64,000 bases of DNA from a virus (Duplodnaviria > Caudoviricetes): positions 1 to 64,000 of IMG/VR virus record IMGVR_UViG_3300033121_000264. One strand, 5' to 3'. Below are positions 1-28,932 of this stretch, in pieces. The translations under genes and the position numbers were made by a program. Under the pieces are notes generated by a model. It did not search any database. It was not told the DNA's origin and saw only the letters and a list, made by a program, of their open reading frames with translations. Every line of letters starts with the position of its first letter. Position 1 is the first letter of the stretch.

Positions 1-1734
1 GATGCCGCTTGGGATAATGCTGAACCAGGTGTTCTATTTTGGGATAATATTCTAAGAGAAAGCCCTGCTGATTGTTACGCCGCGTTTGGATTCCGTACCG
101 TATCTACAAATCCGTGTGGCGAATTACCATTATGTATACTAGATTCCTGTCGGCTTTTGGTTCTAAGTTTAATTAAGTTCGTAAAGAATCCATTTACTCG
201 TAAGGCATATTTTGATTATAAGTCATTTTATCGTTTTGCTCAAATTGCCCAAAGACTTATGGACGATATTATTGACCTTGAATTAGAATGTATTGAACGC
301 ATCATCAAGAAGATTAAAGAAGACCCAGAATCAAATGAAGTTAAAGCTAGAGAACTTAACATGTGGCGAGAAGTACATGGTAAGTGCGTAAATGGTAGAC
401 GTACAGGAACAGGTATTACTGCATTAGGTGATACACTTGCTGCTCTTAATGTAGCATATGGTTCAGAAGAAAGTATTAAAATCACAGATAAGATTTATCA
501 AGTCTTAAAGTTTGGGGCTTATCGTTCAAGCGTAGATATGGCTATAGAACTTGGCCCATTCCCAATTTGGGATGACAAGTTAGAAGAAGAAAATCCATTC
601 CTTAATAGAATTGCTGATGAATCTATTGAATTAAATACATCTCCTGATTCGTGGTTTGATACGGTTGAAGGAGAAGAAATCATAGCAGATATGCGTCGTC
701 ATGGTCGCCGTAATATTGCTCTATTAACTACAGCCCCGGTAGGAACTGTATCTAATCTAATTCATCTATATGAAGATATTTTTGGTAGCACATCAGGTAT
801 TGAACCGGCCTATCTATTAGAATATGACCGCTTTAAGAAGATTAATCCAAGTGACACTGGTTCTAGAGTTGACCGTGTTGACGATATGGGAGATAAGTGG
901 CAAAAATTCACAGTCTATCATCCTGGTATTAGAATGTGGCAACGTATTACCGGAAAGACTGATGTAAAAGAAAGTCCTTATTGGGGTTGTTGTGCCCAAG
1001 ACCTTGATTGGCAGCAAAGAGTTAAATTACAAGCCGCTGCCCAACGTCACGTTGACCATTCTATTAGTTCTACGGTTAATCTTCCAAGAGACGTTTCTAA
1101 GGAACAGGTTGATAAGATTTTCAGAACGGCGTGGAAATCAGGTTTGAAAGGAATAACGATTTATAGAGATGGTTGTAGGGACGGAGTTCTAGTAGATAAT
1201 AAAGCTATTGACAAAGCTAGAATTATTCATAATGATGCTCCAAAACGCCCAAAACAATTAAAGTGTGATATATATCATGTAAAATCATTGGGAGTAGAAT
1301 ATTTTGTAATTGTTGGTTTAATTGGTGAACAACCATATGAAATTTTTGCTGGGAAAAATGGACACATTTCAAAAAAGGCTAAAACTGGGACATTGGATAA
1401 ATGTAATAATGGGGAATATACATTAAAATGTAATGAAACAGATGAAATGATTAATTCTGTATCTAAATATATTACTGATGACCAAGAAGCTATTTGTAGA
1501 TTAATCTCTACAGCGTTACGTCATGGAACAGAAGTTAAATTTTTAATATCACAATTAGACAAAACTCATGGTAATTTAACAGGTTTTGCTAAATCTATTG
1601 GTCGAACATTGAAAAAATATGTTAAAAATGGCACCGAGATTAAGGGTAAATGCGAACACTGTGAGAGCAAAGATATGATTTTCCAAGAAGGTTGTCAAAC
1701 TTGTAAAAATTGCGGATTTTCAAAATGTGGTTAG
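1..1734 (+). CDS. nrdJ: Class II (B12-dependent) ribonucleotide reductase, 5'-truncated by the window; C-terminal TSCPD-like domain and Zn ribbon
   Basis: Frame 1 is open from base 1 (DAAWDNAEPG...STNPCGELPL), in frame with the 157 ORF; RRTGTG, TTAPVGTVS, SISSTVNLP, KGITIYRDG motifs; ends EGCQTCKNCGFSKCG. Confidence 0.95.
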   Translation, partial: DAAWDNAEPGVLFWDNILRESPADCYAAFGFRTVSTNPCGELPLCILDSCRLLVLSLIKFVKNPFTRKAYFDYKSFYRFAQIAQRLMDDIIDLELECIERIIKKIKEDPESNEVKARELNMWREVHGKCVNGRRTGTGITALGDTLAALNVAYGSEESIKITDKIYQVLKFGAYRSSVDMAIELGPFPIWDDKLEEENPFLNRIADESIELNTSPDSWFDTVEGEEIIADMRRHGRRNIALLTTAPVGTVSNLIHLYEDIFGSTSGIEPAYLLEYDRFKKINPSDTGSRVDRVDDMGDKWQKFTVYHPGIRMWQRITGKTDVKESPYWGCCAQDLDWQQRVKLQAAAQRHVDHSISSTVNLPRDVSKEQVDKIFRTAWKSGLKGITIYRDGCRDGVLVDNKAIDKARIIHNDAPKRPKQLKCDIYHVKSLGVEYFVIVGLIGEQPYEIFAGKNGHISKKAKTGTLDKCNNGEYTLKCNETDEMINSVSKYITDDQEAICRLISTALRHGTEVKFLISQLDKTHGNLTGFAKSIGRTLKKYVKNGTEIKGKCEHCESKDMIFQEGCQTCKNCGFSKCG

Positions 1735-1746
1735 TGTTTTGTAAAC

Positions 1747-1756
1747 GGTGTATAAT
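1747..1756 (+). promoter_or_regulatory. GGTGTATAAT motif (putative phage promoter), copy 1
   Basis: Identical 10-mer recurs upstream of other endonuclease genes. Confidence 0.75.
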
Positions 1757-1800
1757 ATAATGTGAAGAGATTTTATCACTGTTACATGACGAGGGTTACA

Positions 1801-2526
1801 ATGGGTGGGTTCTGCAACAAGAATGATATTATTGGCAAAAAACTATTTAAATTAACAGTATTATCTATTTCAAAAACAACAGACAAAGATAAACATACGT
1901 TTTATGAATGCCAATGTGAGTGTGGAAAAATAAGAACTATTAGACGTAGTTCTTTGATAGCAGGTACAACAAAAACGTGTGGTAAATGCTTTATTAGTAA
2001 AGACTTATCCGGTCAAAAATTTGGACAATTACAGGTGATTAAATTTTTAAAAAAAGAAAAAGAAAAAGTTTATTGGGAATGTTTATGTGAATGTGGAAAG
2101 ATTAAAGACACATATACTAGTTTATTAATGACTGGTAGAATGACTCACTGTGGATGTAATAAAAAAGAAATGCCTTATGGTTATAGGCATGGCAATTGGC
2201 ATGGTTTTGCAGAAATAAGTCAAAGATATTGGAAAACACTAGAAAAGGGAGCAATTACAAGAAAGTTAGAGTTTAGTATTAATAAAAAAGATACTTGGAA
2301 TCTATTTCTAAAACAGAATAGAAAATGCGCATTAAGCGGAGTTGAATTAATATTTGCAACAAATAAGTTATCTGACCAAACCGCGTCACTTGACCGAATT
2401 GACTCATCTAAAGGTTATACTGAAGATAATGTTCAATGGATTCATAAAGATTTGCAAAGTATGAAAATGAATCAATCTGAAAAAGATTTTATTAAATGGT
2501 GTAAGTTAATTGCTAATCATCGCTAA
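1801..2526 (+). mobile_element. Free-standing HNH homing endonuclease (CxCxCG repeats plus SLDRID...NVQW); start likely ATG 1801 rather than 1762
   Basis: ECQCECG, ECLCECG, SLDRIDSSKGYTEDNVQWIH; GAGG RBS at 1791; paralogs at 19473, 23873, 33198. Confidence 0.85.
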
Positions 2527-2579
2527 AATATAGTGAAGGATGTGCAAGTTGTGCGTGCGGTTACTCTAAGTGTTCATAA
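2523..2579 (+). pseudogene. Orphan duplicate of the NrdJ C-terminus
   Basis: Translates LKYSEGCASCACGYSKCS*, versus MIFQEGCQTCKNCGFSKCG* at the end of nrdJ. Confidence 0.8.
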
Positions 2580-2591
2580 TGAAAGTCAGCA

Positions 2592-3296
2592 ATGAAACAT
2601 CAACCAAAGAAACCTAGAAAATTAAAAACCAATAAACCAATTAACAAACCAGCCCCTGAATTTGTCGCAGAGAAGGGGGCTCCAGGAACAGAAGGTCAAA
2701 AACAATATTTAAGAACAATATGTGAAAACCAAATAACAATATGTATTGGACCAGCAGGAACCGGTAAGGGTTTTATAGCTATGCACTATGCTATTCAACA
2801 TTTATTAGGAGGGCAATGTAATAAAATTATATTAACTAGACCCGTAGTAAGTGGAGGTATGGAAGAACTTGGTGCTCTTCCCGGAGATACAGACAGTAAG
2901 CTAAGCCCATATATTCAAAGTTTATTAGACTCTCTTAAGAAGTTTATTAGCTATACTCAAATTTCAGAAATAAGAAATAGTAAAGCTTTAGAGTTTATAG
3001 CTCTTAGTCATACTAGGGGAAGAACATACGATAATTGTGTAGTTATATTTGATGAAATGCAAAATGCAAACATAGAACAATTAAAAATGGCTTTGACTAG
3101 AATTGGAAAAAACTGTAAATTGATTATTTTAGGAGATATTAAGCAAAGCGACTTAAAACAAAAGGAAAGAGGAGCTTTAGACTTAGTAATTGGAAAATTA
3201 GATGGAGTTGAAGGTATAGGTATAGTAAAATTAACTAATAAGGATATTATGCGTAATGAAATTATAGGGCGTATTTTAGATAGATTGGAAGAGTAA
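2592..3296 (+). CDS. phoH: PhoH-like ATPase
   Basis: GPAGTGK, LTRP, LGALPG, RGRT, DEMQN, LTRIG, GDIKQSDL, DIMRN. Confidence 0.93.
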   Translation: MKHQPKKPRKLKTNKPINKPAPEFVAEKGAPGTEGQKQYLRTICENQITICIGPAGTGKGFIAMHYAIQHLLGGQCNKIILTRPVVSGGMEELGALPGDTDSKLSPYIQSLLDSLKKFISYTQISEIRNSKALEFIALSHTRGRTYDNCVVIFDEMQNANIEQLKMALTRIGKNCKLIILGDIKQSDLKQKERGALDLVIGKLDGVEGIGIVKLTNKDIMRNEIIGRILDRLEE

Positions 3297-3305
3297 ATTT
3301 TTAAT

Positions 3306-3315
3306 GGTGTATAAT
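3306..3315 (+). promoter_or_regulatory. GGTGTATAAT motif, copy 2
   Basis: 31 nt upstream of ATG 3347; AGGAG RBS in between. Confidence 0.8.
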
Positions 3316-3346
3316 CTATGTGGAGACTACCATAAGGAGATAAAAA

Positions 3347-4396
3347 ATGCACAAAATTATACTACCAAACGAAAACCTATTATGTTGCAAAACCGGTTTT
3401 ATCAATACTAGAGATATTAAAATAGGAGACGGTGTTTTAAATCATGATGGTTTAGCTGATACTGTCATCAATTGTAATAGTTATGAATCAGACATATATA
3501 AAATCAGTTTTACAGACGATACAAAAATTTTAATCAGTCAAGATTCTAAAATTGGATTAATGTCAATGTATGAAAAAAAATACAAAAAAAACTTTAAAAA
3601 CAGAGATATCAGAACAATAAAAGAAAAATACAAAACCGGGGAAGAGAAGTGTATCTTTAGAATTAAGATGTGCAATCCAATAAATTTTGATAATGTTTCT
3701 CAAAAAATTAGTACATATATTACGGGATGTTTAATAGGAGATGGTAATATTTCTTCTCAAACATGTATTGATATATCTAATAAAGACGATGATGTTTTAG
3801 CTAAAATTAAAAAACACTTACCAGATGATTTAATATTAATATACGCAAATCAATACAATTATCGCTTTAGAGGTAAAATAAAATGTAAAAATATAATGTA
3901 TGATATTTATCGAGAATACGATTTATTAGACAAAAAATCATATAATAAATTTATACCAAAAATACTACAAAAGGCGACACTAGAAGAAAGAATTGAATTG
4001 TTATATGGTCTGATAGATACAGATGGATGTATAGCTAAAAGACAAAATGGCGATGGAAGAGTCATTTATTCGACAATTTCTCAAAATTTAGCAGAAGACG
4101 TAGTATTGTTAGTGCAATCATTAGGTGGAACAGCAACTATAAGTAAAAGAACTTTTACAGAAAAAGATAATCATTATTATAAGGGGCATCTCATTAAACA
4201 TAATTATCCGCTATATACAATAAATATTTCTATTAATATAAACCCCGCATCATGCCAAAGAAAAAAAAACAATTATACAACACAAAACCCAAAAAGACTA
4301 ATCAAAAATATTGAATACGTAAAACGCTCACAATGTACGGAGATAACTTTAATGAATAAACAAGAATGTATTACTAATAATTACGTGTGTATATAA
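3347..4396 (+). mobile_element. Free-standing LAGLIDADG endonuclease with degenerate intein (Hint) flanks
   Basis: YITGCLIGDG and LLYGLIDTDG motifs; DIKIGD block near the N-terminus; C-terminus IKNIEYV...ITNNYVCI lacks terminal HN. Confidence 0.85.
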
Positions 4397-4809
4397 TGCC
4401 AACATATCATTATAAATGCGATAATTGTGCTGATGAGTTTGAAATAATTCAATCTTTTCAGGATAAGTCACTAAAAAAATGTAAAAAATGTAAAAAACAT
4501 AAACTAAATAAGGTATTATATGTTCCTTATGTGTCTATTACATTAGGAATACATGAAATTAAAAGTTTAGACCATTTAGGCCGTAATAATTTTGACAGGG
4601 ACGAAAAAGCTGGTATTATAAAGGAAAGTGAGCAGAAAAAAGCCGAAAGGGAAGCTGAATTAGATAAGAAAAACCCATTACCAAATGGTATGAAACGGGT
4701 TAAGACGAAGAAAGTGTCTCCTTGGTGGCGTGATGGTAAAGTCGACCAATCGTTGGGCGATATGAGTGATAAAAAACGAGAAGAATACATTATGACGGGG
4801 AACAAATGA
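4396..4809 (+). CDS. FmdB-family Zn-ribbon protein
   Basis: MPTYHYKCDNC...FEIIQSF...CKKCKK. Confidence 0.75.
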   Translation: MPTYHYKCDNCADEFEIIQSFQDKSLKKCKKCKKHKLNKVLYVPYVSITLGIHEIKSLDHLGRNNFDRDEKAGIIKESEQKKAEREAELDKKNPLPNGMKRVKTKKVSPWWRDGKVDQSLGDMSDKKREEYIMTGNK

Positions 4810-5141
4810 ACGAATTAGAAAAAGCACGTTATGATGAAGCTATGTCAGAAATACCAACTTTTGATGAATCTTTAATAAAACCTATTAATTGTTCTAACTG
4901 TAATAGGCGTTTACTGGATATAATAAGAAATGAGCAGATTGTATCTGCCAAAAGGACACTAATGACAGTGAAGTGTCCATTCTGTAATGATTCAAGTTTC
5001 AAGCATACCATAGATGGTGAATTCTGGATTGGGGACTTAGATAATGTTGCCCACACAGATATTGACTTTGAAGACACTGAATTAGACTCAGCAGGAAAGA
5101 TTAAAAATTGCACGGTCACAGTTCAAACGAGAAAGGTTTAG
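4806..5141 (+). CDS. Hypothetical Zn-finger protein
   Basis: CSNC...CPFC; ATGA overlap with the previous gene. Confidence 0.6.
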   Translation: MNELEKARYDEAMSEIPTFDESLIKPINCSNCNRRLLDIIRNEQIVSAKRTLMTVKCPFCNDSSFKHTIDGEFWIGDLDNVAHTDIDFEDTELDSAGKIKNCTVTVQTRKV

Positions 5142-5471
5142 ATGGTACATATTCATAGACCGAAACAGAACGTTAGAGAAGCCCTACCTGAACCAGTTAA
5201 GACTCAAAGTAAGTTTTATGGCATTCGAGGATTAGAGGCAGATACAGTAGGACCAGATGTATATGCTCATTCAGAAGATATTGGAAATGCATATATTTAT
5301 AGAGCTTTAGCATATCGTAATAGATTATACAATCCATACAATGATTTAAAAGTTCGTGATTTTGAATGGAAGCCAATTGCTAAGCATGTATTTGATAACT
5401 ATTTACAATTCTTAAAAACTCAAAGAGAAGCATATCTAAACGAAGCAGAAAGAGAGTACGCTAATGGCTAA
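5142..5471 (+). CDS. Hypothetical protein
   Basis: ORF in operon packing. Confidence 0.6.
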   Translation: MVHIHRPKQNVREALPEPVKTQSKFYGIRGLEADTVGPDVYAHSEDIGNAYIYRALAYRNRLYNPYNDLKVRDFEWKPIAKHVFDNYLQFLKTQREAYLNEAEREYANG

Positions 5472-5823
5472 GAGAAAATTAACAGAAGTACAAACGGTTT
5501 ATATTGATACTAAACGTGGACAATTAAACGCATCAGAACTATCTAAGATTCTCGGCTTTACTGAAAAAGCCATTCAAGAATATATGGATGCTAATCCTGT
5601 AGTTGTAGAAAATAAACCAGCTCAACCAGCAACGGCTGAAATTAAACAGGAAGAAGACCCTAATGTAATTAAACCGAACTTTATCAATACTACTGGTAAT
5701 GGTAAGTCTGGTGTTGCAATTTGTACTCCACAAGCATCAGAAGTTGGAGATTTTGTTCGTCAGAATCGTAAGAAGGCACCAAATACGAAATTTAACGGTT
5801 GTACTACTAAAATTAAAAAATAA
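5464..5823 (+). CDS. Hypothetical protein, N-terminal HTH-like
   Basis: NASELSKILGFTEKAIQEY. Confidence 0.55.
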   Translation: MAKRKLTEVQTVYIDTKRGQLNASELSKILGFTEKAIQEYMDANPVVVENKPAQPATAEIKQEEDPNVIKPNFINTTGNGKSGVAICTPQASEVGDFVRQNRKKAPNTKFNGCTTKIKK

Positions 5824-5832
5824 AGGGCTTTT

Positions 5833-6273
5833 GTGTTAATATCTAAACTTAGCGGTCACGAAGTTAAACCCGCTCAGTATTTGACTGAATTGATGTGTGA
5901 GCGGAAAGCAAATAAGGAAAGACGTAAGATTGAAGCCGGATTTTGGCACGATGATTATTGGAAACAATTTTACGTTCAGCAAATACAGGCAGCAAATAGT
6001 CTACTAAAACTTTACCCGGTTGAAATTATAGTAGAAGCTGTCAAGGACAAAAGGGCATCTTGGATGTACAGTCTAAGGTCGCCCCAATTAAAACCAATTC
6101 TTGCCGATTATCAGAAGCGTTCTGAAAACAAGGCTAAAATAGAAAAAGAGAAGAAGCTACAATCTCAAACGGCCAAACCTGTCGAATCTCTAGAAGTTCA
6201 AAAAACTCAAGAACTTCGGCCATCAGTAGCTCCAAAGAAAAATAATGTCATATCTAAATTGAAAGGGTTGTAA
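5833..6273 (+). CDS. Hypothetical protein
   Basis: ORF coupled to recA by TAATG. Confidence 0.6.
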   Translation: MLISKLSGHEVKPAQYLTELMCERKANKERRKIEAGFWHDDYWKQFYVQQIQAANSLLKLYPVEIIVEAVKDKRASWMYSLRSPQLKPILADYQKRSENKAKIEKEKKLQSQTAKPVESLEVQKTQELRPSVAPKKNNVISKLKGL

Positions 6274-7283
6274 TGAGCGATATTTTGAAAGAGTTAGAAA
6301 AAGCTTATGGTAAGGGTATTTTTAAAAGTGCTAGCACAATTTTAGACAGAAAAAGAAACATTATACCACTTACTCCTAGATTAAATTTGGCTACAGGTGG
6401 AGGATTACCAGAAGGTTCATTAGCTATTTTTTCAGGTCCGGAAAAGTTTGGTAAAACAACACTAGCATTACATGCTATTAAAAAGTCTCAGCAGTTATTT
6501 AAGAAAAAGGCTTTCTATATTGACGTTGAAAGACGTATTAAGCCAATGAATCTAAATGGTATTGAAGGACTAGATACAGACCCGGAAAATCTAACTATTA
6601 TTAGTTCAGAAAAGGGAAAACTATTAACAGCAGAAGAAACGCTTACTATTGCAGAAAAACTTATTAAGAGTGAGCCTGGTTCTATTATTGTACTAGACTC
6701 CTCATCGGCTTTATGCTCTGAATCAGAAATGGTAAATGACCTTACTGGTCAAACTCGTAGCTTAGGCCCAAAACTATTCGCGGCATTTTGTCGTCGTTGT
6801 GGAAATGCTATTGCTGTTAATGATACTGTATTTATTGTTATTCAACACTTGATTAATGATACTTCTGGTCGTGGCGGTGGTAAGATGGAAGATGGTGGAG
6901 TTAAAGTACAATATCAACAAGATGTTAAATTACGTGGAGCATGGAAAGAAGCATGGAAAGTTGGAACAGGAGAAAATGAAAAAGTTATCGGCCAATTATT
7001 ACATTGGAAGATGTTAACTGGTGCTTTAGAAGGGAATACTCCTGGGGCACAAGTAGACACATATCTTCGTTATGGATATGGTATGGATGAATTGATGGAA
7101 TATGTAGAATTAGCATCAGAACTTAATATTGTTGAGAAAAAGGGTTCTTGGTTTACAATTAATAAAGGTCAAACTGACGAAGCTAAATTTCAAGGTGAAG
7201 AAAAACTTTATCAAGCAATTAAGTCTGATAAAGTATTACAAGATAAGATGATTGGTCAAATTAAAGAAATGACTGGGATGTAA
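6273..7283 (+). CDS. recA: RecA/UvsX recombinase
   Basis: GGGLPEG, GPEKFGKTT, YIDVE, IVLDS, IVEKKGSWF. Confidence 0.92.
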   Translation: MSDILKELEKAYGKGIFKSASTILDRKRNIIPLTPRLNLATGGGLPEGSLAIFSGPEKFGKTTLALHAIKKSQQLFKKKAFYIDVERRIKPMNLNGIEGLDTDPENLTIISSEKGKLLTAEETLTIAEKLIKSEPGSIIVLDSSSALCSESEMVNDLTGQTRSLGPKLFAAFCRRCGNAIAVNDTVFIVIQHLINDTSGRGGGKMEDGGVKVQYQQDVKLRGAWKEAWKVGTGENEKVIGQLLHWKMLTGALEGNTPGAQVDTYLRYGYGMDELMEYVELASELNIVEKKGSWFTINKGQTDEAKFQGEEKLYQAIKSDKVLQDKMIGQIKEMTGM

Positions 7284-7284
7284 T

Positions 7285-7560
7285 ATGAGCCACATTCAAG
7301 AAGATACAAAATATAATATGAAAAAATATCATATTAATCATTGGGGTATAACAGGTAATTTTGAACAAGTTGTACAAAAAGGTCATGTATTTATTGGCGG
7401 CGATAATTTTAGAGATTATGGCCTAATATATTTAAATATAAATGAAGATTCAAATCATAAAAATATAGAGGATGCGCAAACATTGCTATGTCATTCTACT
7501 CATCATAGATATTCAGATTCACAATTTGATTATATTAATAATCCAGTACATATACAATGA
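7285..7560 (+). CDS. Small His-rich hypothetical protein
   Basis: ORF only. Confidence 0.5.
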   Translation: MSHIQEDTKYNMKKYHINHWGITGNFEQVVQKGHVFIGGDNFRDYGLIYLNINEDSNHKNIEDAQTLLCHSTHHRYSDSQFDYINNPVHIQ

Positions 7561-7787
7561 ATGCATATACAATTCATCTACAAGGATTTCAGATATCATA
7601 TGATGGTCATGAAATGACTTGTGAAGAACATATTTATGGTAGTGTTGATATTTTAGATAGAAAAAACAATTATCATATCTCAAGAGATAGAATGTTATTA
7701 CCAGGAAATATTATTGGTGACCATTATAGTCATATAGATAGATTAACAAGATGGGAGCATATGAACTTTGAAAGTGAAAGACACTAA
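7557..7787 (+). CDS. Small His-rich hypothetical protein
   Basis: ORF only; ATGA overlap. Confidence 0.5.
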   Translation: MNAYTIHLQGFQISYDGHEMTCEEHIYGSVDILDRKNNYHISRDRMLLPGNIIGDHYSHIDRLTRWEHMNFESERH

Positions 7788-8181
7788 AGGTAAAACTCAT
7801 CCTTGGAATTTAGCTGGTACTATTCCAGATGTAAATTCATCTAGGCCGCGTTCTGACCTACATTTAAAAGCTAGACAACTACTAAGAGAGTTGTATCCTA
7901 CAGACCAAATCTGTGAAGAAGTTCCTCTGCCTGGGGAAAAACTTTTTGGAGATTTCTACTTGCCTTTGCGAAAATTTATGGTAGAAGTACATGGTCAGCA
8001 ACATTTCAAGTTTGTATCTCATTTTCACGGTTCAATTCAAGAAGGAGGAATGAAAGAATTTCTTGCCTCTAAAGAAAGAGATAGACGTAAAGCTGATTGG
8101 TGTGAGATAAATAATATTAAATTGGTAATACTCCCATACGATAAGGAAACAGAATGGAAAACACTAATAGTCAATCGTTAG
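7768..8181 (+). CDS. DUF559/Vsr-like endonuclease
   Basis: GDFYLP...VEVHGQQH...RDRRKADWCEINNIKLV. Confidence 0.75.
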   Translation: MKVKDTKGKTHPWNLAGTIPDVNSSRPRSDLHLKARQLLRELYPTDQICEEVPLPGEKLFGDFYLPLRKFMVEVHGQQHFKFVSHFHGSIQEGGMKEFLASKERDRRKADWCEINNIKLVILPYDKETEWKTLIVNR

Positions 8182-9282: not shown

Positions 9283-11796
9283 ATGGACTTTAAAAATCCA
9301 CAACCAAGCGAAATTGCAGAACGTTCAGTTTTAGGGGGAATTTTACATCATGGACAAGAAGCTTATTTAGATGTAGCAGATATTATTACTCCAGATTCAT
9401 TTACAAATGATATGAATAAGGTAATATATAACTGTATTAGACAGATTTGTGAGAAAAAAGCCGAAGGTGTTGTGTTAGACCCTGGACTTGTATTATCAGC
9501 TTCACAGGAATGTGGATATGGTCAATTCTTTACAGAAAAGAAACATGCTGAGTATTTAAGGGGTTTGTTTAATTTTGGTGGTACGGTAGATATTAATAAC
9601 ATTCGTACACATGGAGCAAAGATTAGAAAGCTCCAAATTGCTAGAGATTTACAAAAGGCGGCTCTACAATCTGTGGTGGACCTTGGTAATATTAATGGAA
9701 CAGAAGAAATAGAGAAGATTTGTTTCCTAGCCGAAGAACACATTATTCAAGAAATGGATAAGTTATTTGGGCAGGGCCACAATGATATTAAGGATATGGG
9801 TGAGGGACTTTCTGATTTCGTTCAGAATCTTATTGAAAATCCACAAGATAGTTTTGGGATTCCTAATCAGTATGTCGAATATTGTAGGGCTATTGGTGGC
9901 GGACATATTCGTAAAGAATTGGACATTATTGCAGCAAGAGCTAAGCAGGGAAAAGCGGAAACATTAGATAGTATTTTATATACTGTTGACGGTCCTAAAT
10001 TGATGAAAGATATAAAAATAGGAGACTTACTATGTCATCCAAGCGGGAAAACTACAAAAGTTATCCAATTGCATCCTCAGGGTAAATCTCAAGTATACAA
10101 AATTTATTTTAATGATGGAACATTTGTAAAATGTAATAAAGAACATTTATTTACAGTATCACACAGAAGAAATAGATTAGAACAAAATTGTACAATTTCT
10201 ATACAAAATTTACTTAATAAAAATTTAAATTACAAAACTCTTGATGGTAAAAGGCGTAATAATTATTATATAAAATTAACTAAGCCAGTTAAAATGAATA
10301 AAAAACCATTACCTATCCATCCATATGTTATGGGGGTTATTTTAGGAGATGCTCATATTGGTAAAATGGTAATGCTTACATGTTTTGATAACCAAATCAT
10401 TGAAAATTGTAATAAACTACTTAAACCGGGTTATAAGTTTAAAAAATCTAAAAAACGAGAAGGATTATATCTATTGGTTGGTAAAACTAATGGTCTAAAT
10501 TACTATAATCGGATTTTAAAAGAAATTGGATTATATGGAACAAAAGCCAAAAATAAGTTTATACCATCAATCTATAAATACAATAGCAAAAAAAATAGGT
10601 CTTTCTTATTGCAAGGTTTAATGGATACTGATGGTTATGCTGGTAGCAAAAATATAATTCCAGAATATGCTACTAAATCTAAAAAATTAGCACTAGACGT
10701 AACTGAAGTTGTTGAATCGCTAGGAGGAATTTGTAAACTAAAAAGAAGAATCACATATTGTAACAATATAGGTTTTTATTCTTATAGATTACACATTAGC
10801 ACAAATAATAATAAACAATTATTTAAATTAGATAGAAAAATTAATGCAGCATCTATTAGAACTAAAACAGAATTAAAAAGATGGATTACTAAAATAGTAA
10901 AAACAAAAAAACAAGAAGAAATGCAATGTATTACTGTAGATGCTAAAGATGGTCTTTATCTTACAAATAATTTTATTGTTACTCATAACAGTTTTTTCGC
11001 AGATAATATCGGATTTTACATTGCTGAGAAGTTTAACATTCCTGTCATTAATATTGACACGGAACTTTCTCAAGAACAACACTGGATTAGACTATTAGGT
11101 ATTATTTCCGGCGTTGATATGAATGAAATTAAGACTGGTCAATTTGCCAAAGACCCAGAAAAATTAGCAAAGGTACGTGACGCAGAAGAACGTATTAAGA
11201 AGGTGCCTTATAAATATGAATGTATTGGGCATCGTTCGTTTGAAGACGCCTTAGCTATTCTACGTAGATGGGTTAATAAACACGTAGGAATAGATGAAAA
11301 TGGCCGAAGAAATGATTGTTTAATTATATATGACTACATTAAGTTATTGAGTGAAGATGGATTAGAAAAGAATATGGCTGAGTATCAGAAACTAGGTTTT
11401 TTGGTAACGGCCCTAAAGAACTTTCTAATTCGTTATGATGTTCCATGTTTAGCATTTGCTCAATTGAATCGTGATGGTATTGATGGTGATTCAACTGCTG
11501 CTATGGCCGGGTCAGACCGTATTCTTATGTACTGTTCATCTCTGGCTTTTTTCAAACCTAAAACACTAGAAGAAATGGCGATTGGAACTAAGTATGGTAA
11601 TCGTAAGATGCATGTTGTTGCTGCTCGTAATGGACCAGGAACAGATGAAGAAACTTATTTACATATGCAGTTCGATAAAAATATAGGAAGAATAACAGAA
11701 GTTTGTACTCAAGCTAAGGTAAAAGAAGAAGAAAACTATAAAAAGGCATTTGGATACGAAGGTGATGATGACGAAGACATCGAATTACCTAACTAA
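9283..11796 (+). CDS. dnaB: Replicative DNA helicase DnaB with intein
   Basis: AERSVLGGIL, AARAKQGK|S (Walker A after splicing), IDTE, IYDYI, AQLNR, ARNGP. Confidence 0.95.
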   Translation: MDFKNPQPSEIAERSVLGGILHHGQEAYLDVADIITPDSFTNDMNKVIYNCIRQICEKKAEGVVLDPGLVLSASQECGYGQFFTEKKHAEYLRGLFNFGGTVDINNIRTHGAKIRKLQIARDLQKAALQSVVDLGNINGTEEIEKICFLAEEHIIQEMDKLFGQGHNDIKDMGEGLSDFVQNLIENPQDSFGIPNQYVEYCRAIGGGHIRKELDIIAARAKQGKAETLDSILYTVDGPKLMKDIKIGDLLCHPSGKTTKVIQLHPQGKSQVYKIYFNDGTFVKCNKEHLFTVSHRRNRLEQNCTISIQNLLNKNLNYKTLDGKRRNNYYIKLTKPVKMNKKPLPIHPYVMGVILGDAHIGKMVMLTCFDNQIIENCNKLLKPGYKFKKSKKREGLYLLVGKTNGLNYYNRILKEIGLYGTKAKNKFIPSIYKYNSKKNRSFLLQGLMDTDGYAGSKNIIPEYATKSKKLALDVTEVVESLGGICKLKRRITYCNNIGFYSYRLHISTNNNKQLFKLDRKINAASIRTKTELKRWITKIVKTKKQEEMQCITVDAKDGLYLTNNFIVTHNSFFADNIGFYIAEKFNIPVINIDTELSQEQHWIRLLGIISGVDMNEIKTGQFAKDPEKLAKVRDAEERIKKVPYKYECIGHRSFEDALAILRRWVNKHVGIDENGRRNDCLIIYDYIKLLSEDGLEKNMAEYQKLGFLVTALKNFLIRYDVPCLAFAQLNRDGIDGDSTAAMAGSDRILMYCSSLAFFKPKTLEEMAIGTKYGNRKMHVVAARNGPGTDEETYLHMQFDKNIGRITEVCTQAKVKEEENYKKAFGYEGDDDEDIELPN
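9955..10989 (+). mobile_element. 345-aa LAGLIDADG intein in the DnaB Walker A; Ala1, class-3-like
   Basis: Begins AETLDS, ends MQCITV...IVTHN followed by Ser; GVILGDA and LQGLMDTDG. Confidence 0.93.
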
Positions 11797-17075: not shown

Positions 17076-17474
17076 ATGAATTTGGTTTATGAAACATCTT
17101 TTGTTATAATGCCAATCGACACTAATTATATGACGCCAATGGTTTTTGGCGGAGCATTCTTTAGTAAGTTAGACCTTGCTGCTGCTTGCTGTGTAAGTGA
17201 GTTATTAGCAGATTCTCCAACTGGTTGTGACTCAGCAGTTACATATAAATATAATGGAGAATTTCTTGATGCTGCTCAAATGGGCGACATTATCTATATA
17301 AAAGTTGAAGTAGTAGAACTACGTCATAAATCTGTTAGAATGAAAGTGATTGCTCATAGAGCTAAAAGAGCGAAAAAGGGACGAGACTTAGTGGCTACTG
17401 CTGAATTCGTATTTGTTACTAAGAAAGATGGAAAATTTTGTAATCATGGATTGTCATTAATCAAGGAGTCCTAG
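17076..17474 (+). CDS. Hotdog-fold acyl-CoA thioesterase
   Basis: VMPIDTN...VFGG...LDLAA...FVFV. Confidence 0.75.
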   Translation: MNLVYETSFVIMPIDTNYMTPMVFGGAFFSKLDLAAACCVSELLADSPTGCDSAVTYKYNGEFLDAAQMGDIIYIKVEVVELRHKSVRMKVIAHRAKRAKKGRDLVATAEFVFVTKKDGKFCNHGLSLIKES

Positions 17475-19420
17475 TGTTTAATTCCCTAAAAAATCACACA
17501 CACTATTCTTTACAGCTTTCTCCAATGAGGCCACATCAGCTAGTACATAGAGCATGGCAAATTGGGTCTGATGCTGTAGCTATTACTGATACTGGTAGTA
17601 TCTCATGTGCGTTAGACTTTCATAAAGCATGTAAGGAAACGTGTGAATGTGGTCGTCCTAAGAAAGCCCATCCTAATAGAGAATGCGAAACTTTCAAAGC
17701 TATTAAAATGAAGCCTATTCTTGGGTGCGAATTTAATGTATGCAAACAGCCCGCAACTGAGAAAGACGATAGTAATATTGCTAAGGATAAACTCTATATT
17801 CTAGCAAAAAACTATAATGGGTGGAAAACTCTAATCAAATTAGTATCTCTAAGCCATAAAAACTTCTATAAAAAGCCGAGAGTGTCTATCCATGACCTTA
17901 AAGGAATGGTTGACGGTAATCTTATATGTTATAGTGGGTCAGTAGGTACTGAATTAGGTAATTTACTATGGGAAGGTGATGAATCTTATGGGCTTGATGA
18001 AGCATCGTTAGAAATGCGTCGTAAGCCAAATCAGAAAGAGTTAGCTCTCAATTGGTTAAATGAATATATTGGAGTCTTTGGTAAAGATAATGTCTTTGTT
18101 GAAATTCAAGATAATCAATTGGTCCAAAACAAATTGTCTGCTCCACTTTTAAGAGAAGTAGCAGAAGAAGTTGGTGTTAAATGTATTGCTACAAATAATG
18201 TCTATTATCCACATAAAGAAGATAAATTAGACCAACAAGTATTAATGGCTAGTTTATTAAAATGTAAAATTAAATCACTATTTGAAACAATCATTAAGAA
18301 AGCCCCAGAATTAAACTTTGTCACATACTCTAGTAATCATATGCCTAATGTGGATGAATTAGAAAATCCACAGCATGAGATTGACAATACCAAATTCTTG
18401 TCTGACCTTTGCGAAGAATATAAGATTACGAGCAATCCTATTTTTCCAAATTTCGAGTGTCCAGACTCAAAGAATCCAACAGTATATTTGAGAGAATTAT
18501 GTCGTGAGGGCTGGAAAAGAAAAATTCAAGGTAAAATCACCAAAGAAGATGAGGCCAAATATGTTACCCAAATCAAAGAAGAATTAGATGTATTTGAAGA
18601 ATACAAACTAGATACATACTTTTTAGTCGTTCAAGACTATATTAGATGGGCCAAGAAACAAATGTTGGTTGGGCCGGGTCGTGGTAGCGTTGGTGGTTCA
18701 TTAGCAGCATATTTATTGGATATAACCGAAGTAGACCCAATCCCTTTCGGCCTTTATTTCTCACGATTTATTAATAAGGGTCGTTTAAGCAAAGACCACA
18801 TCTCATTACCTGATATTGATACAGACTTTCCTAAATCTCGTAGAGGAGATGTTATTCGTTATCTTCAAGAAAAATATGGATACGCTAGAGTTGCACAAAT
18901 TTGTAATTTTGGTACAATGAAAGGGCGTTCAGCTATTACTGATGTTTTTAGTACCCACGACGCATGTTCATTCCAAGAAATTAAGAATATTACAGAATGT
19001 ATTCCAGAAGAATCTAAAATTAGTGATGACCTTCAAGAAATGATTGAAGAAGAAGGTGAAGCAAGTATCATTAAATGGACATTGGAAAACAATCCAGAAT
19101 CATTGTCTAAATGGTGCGAAATTGATAGTTCAGGTAATCTAACAGGTGATTATGCTGAATATTTTAAACAAGCAATTCGCTTAGAAGGATGTAAACGTAG
19201 TATTGGTCGTCACGCATCTGGAATTATTATTTCTGGCCAAGATATTTCAGAATTAGCTCCTATAATTCAAATTTCAGAGGAAACCGAAGACCTAGCATTA
19301 ATCGGATATGACATGCACGGCTGCGAAATGGTAGGTCTTATAAAAATGGACATTTTGGGCCTAACCACACTAGATAGACTAATGAAATGGCAAGAAATAA
19401 TGGCTACTCAAGAAAGTTGA
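17474..19420 (+). CDS. dnaE: DNA polymerase III alpha, piece 1 (PHP domain and palm, up to KMDILGL)
   Basis: NHTHYS, AITD, GPGRGSVGGSL, PDIDTDF, GRHASG, LIKMDILGL; then stop. Confidence 0.92.
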   Translation: MFNSLKNHTHYSLQLSPMRPHQLVHRAWQIGSDAVAITDTGSISCALDFHKACKETCECGRPKKAHPNRECETFKAIKMKPILGCEFNVCKQPATEKDDSNIAKDKLYILAKNYNGWKTLIKLVSLSHKNFYKKPRVSIHDLKGMVDGNLICYSGSVGTELGNLLWEGDESYGLDEASLEMRRKPNQKELALNWLNEYIGVFGKDNVFVEIQDNQLVQNKLSAPLLREVAEEVGVKCIATNNVYYPHKEDKLDQQVLMASLLKCKIKSLFETIIKKAPELNFVTYSSNHMPNVDELENPQHEIDNTKFLSDLCEEYKITSNPIFPNFECPDSKNPTVYLRELCREGWKRKIQGKITKEDEAKYVTQIKEELDVFEEYKLDTYFLVVQDYIRWAKKQMLVGPGRGSVGGSLAAYLLDITEVDPIPFGLYFSRFINKGRLSKDHISLPDIDTDFPKSRRGDVIRYLQEKYGYARVAQICNFGTMKGRSAITDVFSTHDACSFQEIKNITECIPEESKISDDLQEMIEEEGEASIIKWTLENNPESLSKWCEIDSSGNLTGDYAEYFKQAIRLEGCKRSIGRHASGIIISGQDISELAPIIQISEETEDLALIGYDMHGCEMVGLIKMDILGLTTLDRLMKWQEIMATQES

Positions 19421-26896: not shown

Positions 26897-27799
26897 ATGA
26901 TTATAGACCAATCTATATGGGCTAAATGTTTAATTTGTCAAAAAACCAAAAAAGATATATGTAAATTATATGGTGGTGGTGGAATTTATTATTCACAAGC
27001 ATTTAATAATCATATTAATAAAGACCACAATTTAACTTTAGAAGAATATTTTGTTCAATATTGTAATTTAGAACAACCAATATGTGCTTGTAATATATGT
27101 AATCAAAAATGTAAATTATCAAATCATGTTGGTAAAATCAAATGGAAAGAATATGTTTGTGGTAGATATCCTGGGTTATTAAAATGGTCAGAAGATGCTA
27201 AAATAAATAGAAAAGGTTCAAAAAATCCCATGTTTGGTAAAACAGCATGGAACAAAAATAAAACCAAAAATGATTGTGAACAGTTAAAAAATATATCAGA
27301 AAAACGAAAAGGAATAAAAGTATCTGAAGCTTCCAAATTTAAAATGTCTGAATCTGCTAAAAAAAGAAAAATTCATGGACATACTGGCTTTAAACATTCT
27401 GAAGAATCTAAACAAAAAAATAGAGAAGCTACATTACAAAGAATTAAAAACGGTGATTTTAAACAAACAAAAACAAAACCACATATAGAATTAGAAAAAA
27501 TTTTAACAGAATTAAGATTTAAATTTGAATCAGAAAAAACTATACATTATTGGTCTTTTGATATCTATTTAATAGATTTTGATATTTATATTGAAGTTGA
27601 TGGCGATTATTTTCATTCTAATCCAAAACTATATCCAAATGGACCTAAAACTAAAACTCAAAAAATTAATTATATTAGAGATATTAGTAAAAACAAATAT
27701 TGTAAAACCAATAATATTAAATTAATCAGATTTTGGGAATGTGACATATTAAATGATATTGAAAGGGTAAAAATAGAATTATGCAAGCTGAAAAAATAA
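26897..27799 (+). mobile_element. Vsr-like (EDxHD/DUF559) homing endonuclease with NUMOD3 repeats
   Basis: NPMFGKTAWNK, GFKHSEESKQK, FDIY...IEVDGDYFH...RD...FWECD. Confidence 0.85.
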
Positions 27800-28932
27800 T
27801 TGGTATTAAAAAAATTGGAACTTTACCAACAGTTGATATTGAAGTAAAAAGTGATAGACATATTTTTTATGGAAATGGAATAGCTACATCAAATTCACAC
27901 AGTATTGAATATGGTCTAGTAAGCTATTGGACGGCTTTTGCTAAGGCTCATGGTTCACATGCATTTTATACAGCTTGGCTCAAGGAAAGCATTGGACAAC
28001 AAGATGGTGAGAAGGATGTTATCAAACTTACCGCCAATGCAATGACTCAAAAGGTCAAAATTAATACACCAACAATTCTAACCAATAAAGACAATTTCTA
28101 CACAGATGGTAAAGAGATTTGGTTTGGCCTAATCAATATTAAGGGGGTTGGAGCATCTGTTGTTAGAAAACTTCATGAGGCTAGTAAAAAAGCCGAGGAA
28201 GAAATAGGTGTCTCGTTAAAAGATATGTCTTGGATTCAGTTCCTAGTATATGTATCAGGTTCAATAAATAGTAAGGCTATGTTGGCTATGATAATGGCTG
28301 GGGCTTTAGACCATTTAAAAATGAGCCGCACCCAAATGAAATATGAGTATGAAAAATTCCTAGTTATTAATGACAACGAATTGGGCCTAATTAAATCAAA
28401 GGCTACTAATTACAATATGGCACTAGTAGAGTTCCTTCGGCCTTTTTGTAAGACTCGTAAGAATGGGGGCGTCGTAGCTAATGAACGCCGATTAGGTACA
28501 TTTGAAGATATTATCAAAACCCTAGATAAACCTCCATTTGATTTAGCGGATTCTCCTAATAAAATTTTGGAAAATGAACGTAGATTGCTTGGTGTTGCTT
28601 TAACTTATAACGTTGGCGATAGTATTGCTAATGATGCTGTAAACTGTTCATGTTATGAATTTGCCGAAGGTAAACCCTTGGATAGCTTCGTGTTAGGTGT
28701 AGAAATATTGGACGTTCGACCCTATAATATAAAGCGGGGAAAACAGACTGGCAAACAAATGTATTATTTGGACGTTTCTGATGGTACGACAAATATGCCT
28801 AATTGCACTGTATTTCCAGATACTTTTGATGAATATGGAAGTCTGATTACAAAGGGTAATAGAGTTCTTTTATTTGGAAAACGTGATTCAAAGTTCAACA
28901 GTTTCAACGTACAAAAGGTAATTCAAGCGTGA
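27781..28932 (+). CDS. dnaE: Split intein C-part (27781-27894, 38 aa) fused to DnaE piece 3 (HhH and OB fold)
   Basis: TVDIEV...HIFYGNGIATSN|SHSIEY; IWFGLINIKGVG; MAGALD; ERRLLG; VFPDTF. Confidence 0.9.
   Translation: MQAEKIIGIKKIGTLPTVDIEVKSDRHIFYGNGIATSNSHSIEYGLVSYWTAFAKAHGSHAFYTAWLKESIGQQDGEKDVIKLTANAMTQKVKINTPTILTNKDNFYTDGKEIWFGLINIKGVGASVVRKLHEASKKAEEEIGVSLKDMSWIQFLVYVSGSINSKAMLAMIMAGALDHLKMSRTQMKYEYEKFLVINDNELGLIKSKATNYNMALVEFLRPFCKTRKNGGVVANERRLGTFEDIIKTLDKPPFDLADSPNKILENERRLLGVALTYNVGDSIANDAVNCSCYEFAEGKPLDSFVLGVEILDVRPYNIKRGKQTGKQMYYLDVSDGTTNMPNCTVFPDTFDEYGSLITKGNRVLLFGKRDSKFNSFNVQKVIQA

Follow-up and report, generated by a model that had tools for sequence, protein, structure and literature searches.

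A free-standing phage gene of intein descent beside phoH, probably acting as a homing element

Selfish elements are customarily sorted so that inteins form one kind and free-standing homing endonuclease genes another, and to our knowledge the sole documented passage from the first kind to the second is that of the yeast VMA1 intein to WHO and HO. A 349-codon phage gene, termed P0002, raises the question of whether the same passage has taken place in phages. P0002 occupies positions 3347-4396 (+ strand) of the window analysed here, a 64-kb stretch taken from the start of an IMG/VR virus record of 104.7 kb. The original prediction for this locus held that an intein had lost splicing and persists as a stand-alone homing gene, a phage analogue of yeast HO.

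P0002 was delimited from the list of open reading frames and its translation. An in-frame TAA (3341-3343), two codons 5' of the ATG, excludes an N-extein, and the stop codon of P0002 sits at the position of the terminal His of inteins; the predicted lack of exteins was thus borne out. On the 5' side lies an intein-less phoH gene (2592-3296, + strand) that matches Pfam PhoH in a single piece (3.8e-64, profile positions 4-203 of 205) and ends 50 nt before P0002. On the 3' side, the TAA of P0002 overlaps, as TAATG, the ATG of an FmdB-like zinc-ribbon gene (4396-4809, + strand; Pfam Zn_ribbon_8, 2.1e-13). Given the upstream stop, the complete phoH on one side and the separate gene on the other, P0002 stands alone and is not part of a larger gene. 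The neighbouring phoH is presumed to be the ancestral host gene and is likely the target gene; alignment with spliced intein-bearing PhoH proteins placed its RGR/T intein site (the slash marks the insertion point) at 3015-3026 (+ strand).

P0002 had been credited with its own promoter motif and an AGGAG ribosome-binding site. The latter is real, in that a predicted Shine-Dalgarno-like AAGGAG (3334-3339, + strand) could be read from the sequence 7 nt 5' of the ATG, but the promoter came down to a lone TATAAT (3310-3315), and a sigma-70 two-hexamer scan of the 50-nt spacer (3297-3346) found no promoter-like site. When GC content was compared, P0002 (26.4%) fell well below the window (33.6%), in the same trough as the genuine DnaB intein of the window (25.8%, versus 36% in its exteins). 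The five other frames of the P0002 region contain 16-42 stops, and at the base composition of the region (26% GC) an open frame of 349 codons would be expected by chance with a probability of about 1e-15. In metagenomes of river and other aquatic origin, P0002 was present on contigs of four studies, identical save for one K209R change.

The DnaB intein just mentioned served as a comparator. It is a genuine class-3-type intein (9955-10989, + strand) inserted at the Walker A motif (GK/AETLD...VTHN/S) of an 837-aa DnaB protein (9283-11796). BLASTP aligned residues 22-347 of P0002 with DnaB residues 242-565 colinearly at 28% identity (E 5e-18), and the shared sequence blocks on which the proposed colinearity was based were present. 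As a separate observation, this intein has Phe (EHLF) at the usual block-B Trp position; moreover, the DnaB call of a related phage contig considered below (L012) is 505 aa long and runs off the locus end, and L012 may be without a DnaB intein.

When P0002 was aligned with PhoH inteins, an N-terminal Hint lobe with degenerate blocks A and B (aa 5-105; 3359-3661), a LAGLIDADG endonuclease domain (aa 106-300; 3662-4246, with motifs at 3716-3745 and 3998-4027) and a C-terminal Hint lobe (aa 301-349; 4247-4393) were delineated, all on the + strand. Pfam analyses supported the central domain (LAGLIDADG_3, 7.5e-12; Hom_end, 7.5e-6), and Hom_end_hint was found below threshold. The splicing positions were then read from a 31-sequence alignment with genuine inteins. 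The block-B His is Ser67, the block-F Cys (at least 90% conserved) is Glu332, and the terminal His-Asn is absent, which agrees with the claim that all splicing residues are gone. In addition, Ile69 takes the place of the block-B Trp and Ile349 that of the block-G Thr, and there is no +1 nucleophile. Cys330, the first Cys of the block-F C-x-C, is still present, and the stretch ahead of intein position 1 is just four residues long (MHKI). The nuclease set of Asp132 (LIGDG), Lys201 (KFIP) and Asp226 (DTDG), on the other hand, was invariant in every alignment made. P0002 therefore has the two motifs, each with its acidic residue, and the active-site Lys of a single-chain LAGLIDADG enzyme. It is also predicted to have the nested endonuclease splitting a Hint fold that is found in class-3-type inteins, but it has neither their in-frame insertion nor their splicing residues.

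The full-length colinearity with inteins would also fit a working intein of phoH or of another gene, a partner in trans-splicing, or an assembly or frameshift artefact. However, phoH is complete in one piece, a stop precedes the ATG and another replaces the His-Asn, no splicing position holds a nucleophile, and independent assemblies from four studies agree on the sequence. We rejected this reading on the sequence itself and give it practically no credence.

The original prediction implied a Hint plus LAGLIDADG fold, and this was supported by AlphaFold2 (mean pLDDT 92.5, pTM 0.91), with PI-SceI and VMA inteins as the best PDB matches of the model. The N-terminal Hint lobe was modelled as beta-rich, with pLDDT mostly above 85. 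In a Foldseek search against the PDB, PI-SceI (1ef0, 1lwt, 1vde) ranked on top over the whole chain (E about 1e-15, TM 0.70), followed by the TliVMA, PhoVMA and PI-PfuI inteins, and plain LAGLIDADG enzymes and mini-inteins gave partial matches only. Because the alignment used by AlphaFold2 consisted mostly of real inteins and would bias the model towards the intein fold, the modelled Hint lobes are only partly independent as evidence.

From which intein, then, might P0002 descend? An exhaustive profile-free search with P0002 returned 9379 hits, nearly all embedded in longer proteins, and the best ten of these were all intein-carrying PhoH proteins, in which the best-matching stretch was the intein that follows YMRGR and precedes Thr/Ser-Phe. 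The closest homologues are thus inteins inside host proteins and not ordinary stand-alone LAGLIDADG proteins, an outcome on which the original prediction depended. These RGR-site PhoH inteins are of class-3 type (Ala1, HLW, C-x-C, VTHN). Those at RGR/T (for example P0018, P0020 and P0003) are 33-36% identical to P0002 over its full length and have the same domain order; they lie in frame within PhoH and keep Ala1/HLW/C-x-C/THN and the following Thr/Ser, whereas P0002 lies outside phoH and has lost the splicing set. P0002 scored 297 bits against a profile of 32 RGR-site PhoH inteins, compared with 214 bits against a profile of PhoH P-loop inteins and 257 bits against one of other P-loop inteins; the DnaB intein of the window showed the reverse preference on the same profiles. 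Moreover, P0002 and the RGR type have in common a 4-residue insert after the LAGLIDADG motif and the motif TEKDxHxY..G..I(K/R)H, and P-loop inteins have neither. Against PHROG, P0002 matched terminase and primase families only, because genuine inteins reside inside members of those families.

Of the two candidates put forward for the original extein, PhoH or a helicase, PhoH at RGR/T is thus favoured by the hits, the profiles and the shared indel, but maximum-likelihood trees do not fix the exact placement of P0002. In FastTree, P0002 and the other free-standing proteins, described below, were nested in the RGR clade (support 100) and were monophyletic (support 95), as they also were in a quick tree of full-length sequences. 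In a tree of the nuclease domain alone they stood apart from one another among RGR inteins, with moderate support; their monophyly may be long-branch attraction arising from parallel decay of the Hint lobes. An AU test did not reject a tree with P0002 forced to the P-loop side (p-AU 0.85); this constrained tree even lay 26 lnL above a short free search. The trees and the AU test thus fix neither the precise branching order nor how often escape took place. As judged from sequence, kinship of P0002 to the RGR-site PhoH inteins nevertheless appears well supported, on account of the profile scores and the shared indel.

Six further free-standing proteins likewise lack the block-B His, the block-F Cys and the terminal His-Asn, and keep the nuclease triad. 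P0040, of the RGR type, lies 5 nt 3' of a 246-aa phoH with Asn at the +1 position; P0210 (L006:4001-5209), of the P-loop type, lies 1 nt 3' of a PIN-phoH gene and was found on 7 contigs; P0250 (L009:2369-3454; divergent) is beside a DEAD/SNF2 helicase gene; P0009, which its source labels "PhoH and related proteins", has no recognisable phoH neighbour; P0238 is carried on short contigs (L010, L011); and P0132 (L097:5001-6302) lies in an island of a Firmicutes chromosome, near an integrase gene and the spoIIIA operon. P0132 was judged by eye and stood outside the look-alike alignment. Asp/Lys/Asp was invariant in all six free-standing proteins aligned. The free-standing proteins differ in their start points and in the residues at the splicing positions (S/S/T and E/G/M). 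Such free-standing genes are rare: a search of the 80 best IMG/VR loci and of three GenBank phage hits turned up genuine in-frame inteins only. As a side observation, two in-frame inteins, P0195 and P0209, have VTAA and not VTHN at their end.

The trees also bear on the direction of descent. Since they are unrooted, and the free-standing proteins occupy long, poorly resolved branches, a free-standing Hint-LAGLIDADG lineage could in principle have given rise to the PhoH inteins. We consider this highly improbable, as the free-standing proteins fall among or beside the RGR-site inteins both in FastTree and in the nuclease-only tree, their differing splicing-position substitutions and start points are what repeated decay predicts, and the few free forms are outnumbered by relatives able to splice, of which there are thousands.

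Descent from an intein would in turn account for how divergence is distributed along P0002. When P0002 was compared with RGR-site PhoH inteins, identity was 0.23 in the N-terminal Hint lobe, 0.26 in the C-terminal Hint lobe and 0.35 in the nuclease domain; among the true inteins themselves, the corresponding values were 0.45 +/- 0.04, 0.45 +/- 0.04 and 0.42 +/- 0.02, respectively. Such uneven decay is the pattern expected if the constraint of splicing had been lost and that of the endonuclease kept. The strong divergence of both Hint lobes, the loss of every splicing residue and the rarity of the free-standing form could also be read as signs of an inert relic, that is, an intein remnant left after a rearrangement, inactive and open only by recency. 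This is very unlikely, given how improbable an open frame of this length is at such a base composition and how many stops the other frames contain. Identity to any intein is at most 36%, and with so long a divergence the frame must have been open for a long time; the triad is kept in the aligned free-standing proteins, and the nuclease identity is near the intein norm.

If P0002 is mobile, close relatives without it might be expected. IMG/VR peptide scans with P0002 and with the PhoH of the window found no close relatives, and when window positions 1-8000 were compared with GenBank phages by blastn, the sole matches were weak ones to RNR (crAss-like and other phages). The two closest PhoH homologues (53-54% identity), however, were encoded on syntenic phage contigs, L012 and L013, in both of which the gene order is RNR, phoH, zinc-ribbon ... 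RecA ... DnaB. Neither contig contains a P0002-like ORF or the HNH gene described below, and phoH is followed directly by the zinc-ribbon gene; the site is empty in both.

Comparison with L013 revealed, in addition, that the surroundings of P0002 are replaced. Nucleotide identity to L013 was 78% over window positions 1-1631, 88% over 2523-2640 and 80% over 4588-7280, but blastn found no nucleotide similarity over 2641-4587 (+ strand), a tract that begins at about codon 17 of phoH, takes in P0002 and extends through ~64 codons at the 5' end of the zinc-ribbon gene. At the amino acid level, RecA, g111 and the C-terminal part of the zinc-ribbon protein were 81%, 96% and 92% identical to L013, respectively, as compared with 53% for PhoH and 49% for the N-terminal part of the zinc-ribbon protein; the latter two were as low as against the more distant L012. 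The N-terminal part encoded by those first codons (4396-4587) is of one type in the window (MPTYHYKCDNC...) and of another (MNLYRC.DC...) in L012 and L013, which are 68% identical to each other there. With an N-terminal part of a different type and the rest 92% identical to L013, a recombination joint lies inside the zinc-ribbon gene. Because L012 and L013 have the N-terminal type in common, the window is the derived state, although the polarity of the phoH replacement between the window and L013 follows from this N-terminal part only. We interpret the tract 2641-4587 as a co-converted cassette. In sequencing run X19, moreover, a minor strain without P0002 (~7% of depth) matched the window only from 4588, with an L013-type border; relatives with and without P0002 thus co-occur in the same sample.

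Absence from the same site in close relatives and replaced flanks are what is seen with free-standing homing endonuclease genes, and they support the mobility implied by the name stand-alone homing gene, by which P0002 would also be a cleaving enzyme with a target of its own. P0002 may instead have been domesticated, for competitor exclusion, for cutting host DNA, or for DNA binding or regulation as in WhiA. The overlap of its stop with the next start would couple it translationally to the zinc-ribbon gene, it is nearly unchanged across four studies, and LAGLIDADG proteins have been domesticated before, in HO and WhiA (PMC7282813). We regard domestication as quite unlikely, since close relatives are without P0002, its low GC is that of a mobile element and the replaced flanks are typical of homing; a pure DNA binder would, in addition, hardly have kept the catalytic residues.

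Homing by P0002 is thus the preferred reading, and the question becomes where it would cut. Free-standing phage endonuclease genes often cut next to their own insertion point. An active enzyme might therefore be directed not at the old RGR/T site but at the phoH/zinc-ribbon junction or at the zinc-ribbon gene, into which the replaced tract reaches by ~190 nt; at 35% identity to inteins, its specificity may have drifted. Yet three independent copies lie directly 3' of differing phoH types, which points to phoH and not to the variable downstream genes, and the tract spans almost all of phoH, including nt 3015-3026. A target away from RGR/T is accordingly unlikely.

Some motifs of the phoH genes deserve mention in their own right. 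The Walker A motif of the window PhoH (2757-2771) reads GTGKG instead of GK(T/S), as it does in L012, and since L012 is without P0002, GTGKG is a trait of the lineage. GKG and SHTRGRT in the window phoH were considered as resistance changes, and this idea was dropped; L012 has the same motifs, so they say nothing on immunity. In L013 PhoH and in the phoH beside P0040, the intein +1 residue is Asn (RGR/N), which could not support splicing.

Between RNR and phoH, the window contains an HNH endonuclease gene (1762-2526; phrog_374, 3e-32) that is absent in L012 and L013. The 3' end of the RNR gene (1632-1734) is replaced, and the old 3' end survives as a 19-codon remnant (2523-2579), which reads LKYSEGCASCACGYSKCS followed by two stops and is an exact match to the C-terminus of L013 RNR. 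The layout of 1632-2579 thus resembles the rewritten 3' end plus leftover copy of WHO elements. The X19 minor strain skips the HNH gene at the L013 borders, joining 1633 to 2523. Further downstream, 7281-7768 has no similarity to L013, and a 137-aa gene (7768-8181) that matches homing/HNH endonuclease PHROGs (phrog_9084, 1e-12) may be another mobile nuclease gene. The DNA polymerase is apparently split into two genes (17474-19420 and 27781-28932) that lie ~8.4 kb apart and cover phrog_405 positions 43-612 and 793-1071.

We therefore propose the following course of events. P0002 would descend from a LAGLIDADG-bearing class-3-type intein at RGR/T of PhoH and would now be a separate gene 50 nt 3' of an intact phoH, its splicing residues decayed and its Hint fold and active centre retained. 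The Hint lobe is probably left with a DNA-binding role only, as the analogy with PI-SceI and HO suggests. In a mixed infection, P0002 would attack the phoH region of any related phage lacking it, with the cut probably falling in or close to the former intein site; the target is taken to be phoH from ancestry and position only. Repair of the break from the carrier genome would then copy P0002 along with its flanks, the 3' portion of phoH and the beginning of the gene that follows, and the phoH of the carrier would presumably be immune. The most likely mode would be intron-less homing like that of WHO. On balance, we think it probable that P0002 is an escaped PhoH intein acting as a WHO/HO-like homing element in a phage. 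Its intein descent, the loss of the splicing residues, the retention of the fold and of the catalytic residues, the presence or absence among relatives and the replaced tract are the observations on which this reading is built.

The look-alikes suggest that the same passage occurred in phages, probably more than once. A broader proposal has, in our estimate, about an even chance of being correct: escaped inteins would form a class of homing elements that is as yet undescribed and has arisen repeatedly in phages and some bacteria, in which class-3-type inteins of PhoH and other P-loop NTPases time and again lose splicing, leave the frame, settle next to the host gene and home by rewriting a neighbour gene, with the Hint lobe binding DNA. 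A full-text literature search yielded no description, for phages or bacteria, of an intein that is free-standing and splicing-dead, which is no proof of absence. If the proposal is true, there would be a prokaryotic counterpart of yeast WHO, and the route from intein to free-standing endonuclease would be general. Such genes would offer a system in which to test the reuse of the Hint domain for DNA recognition after the loss of splicing, allow the move of a homing enzyme from inside its target gene to beside it to be studied, and add to the available LAGLIDADG scaffolds new ones that are single-chain and naturally equipped with a further lobe for DNA binding. There is also a consequence for annotation, as illustrated by the PhoH label of P0009 and the terminase and primase matches of P0002.

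Among known systems, PI-SceI (VDE) and the archaeal VMA and PI-PfuI inteins resemble P0002 in combining Hint with a two-motif LAGLIDADG fold. The Asp/Lys/Asp active-site equivalents of PI-SceI align with those of P0002, in a sequence alignment that spans 175-269. These inteins splice, unlike P0002, and sequence identity to them is only 12-15%.

A second comparison is with phage endonuclease genes. Intron-less homing has been demonstrated for T4 Seg/Mob and for T5orf172 genes, and T5orf172 and HNH genes are found at exchange boundaries (PMC2988022, PMC2790892, PMC10448857). Like P0002, these genes are intergenic, lie beside a conserved gene of nucleotide metabolism, vary in presence or absence and show co-conversion of flanks. 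They are, however, of GIY-YIG, HNH or T5orf172 type, without Hint or intein ancestry.

The original prediction likened P0002 to yeast HO. The likeness in intein origin stands, but the WHO elements are a closer parallel than HO itself (comparison based on PMC7282813 and bioRxiv 10.64898/2026.08.13.744650). WHO elements are extein-less, intein-derived endonuclease genes; each lies 3' of its host gene, a portion of which it replaces as it spreads (Coughlan et al. 2020, PMC7282813). WHO and HO are nuclear genes of eukaryotes, originated from a class-1 VMA1 intein and have a fused C-terminal zinc finger, whereas P0002 is a phage gene, would originate from a class-3-type PhoH intein and ends at the intein C-terminus, the zinc ribbon being encoded by a separate downstream gene. 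Since it has no zinc finger fused to it and goes back to another intein, P0002 falls outside the WHO/HO family, with which it has no common origin beyond the intein superfamily. What P0002 and WHO/HO have in common is a Hint plus LAGLIDADG protein without exteins, encoded by a free-standing gene just 3' of its host or target gene. WHO homing replaces part of the neighbour gene without interrupting it, as we propose for P0002, and in both cases resistance would arise from differences between alleles.
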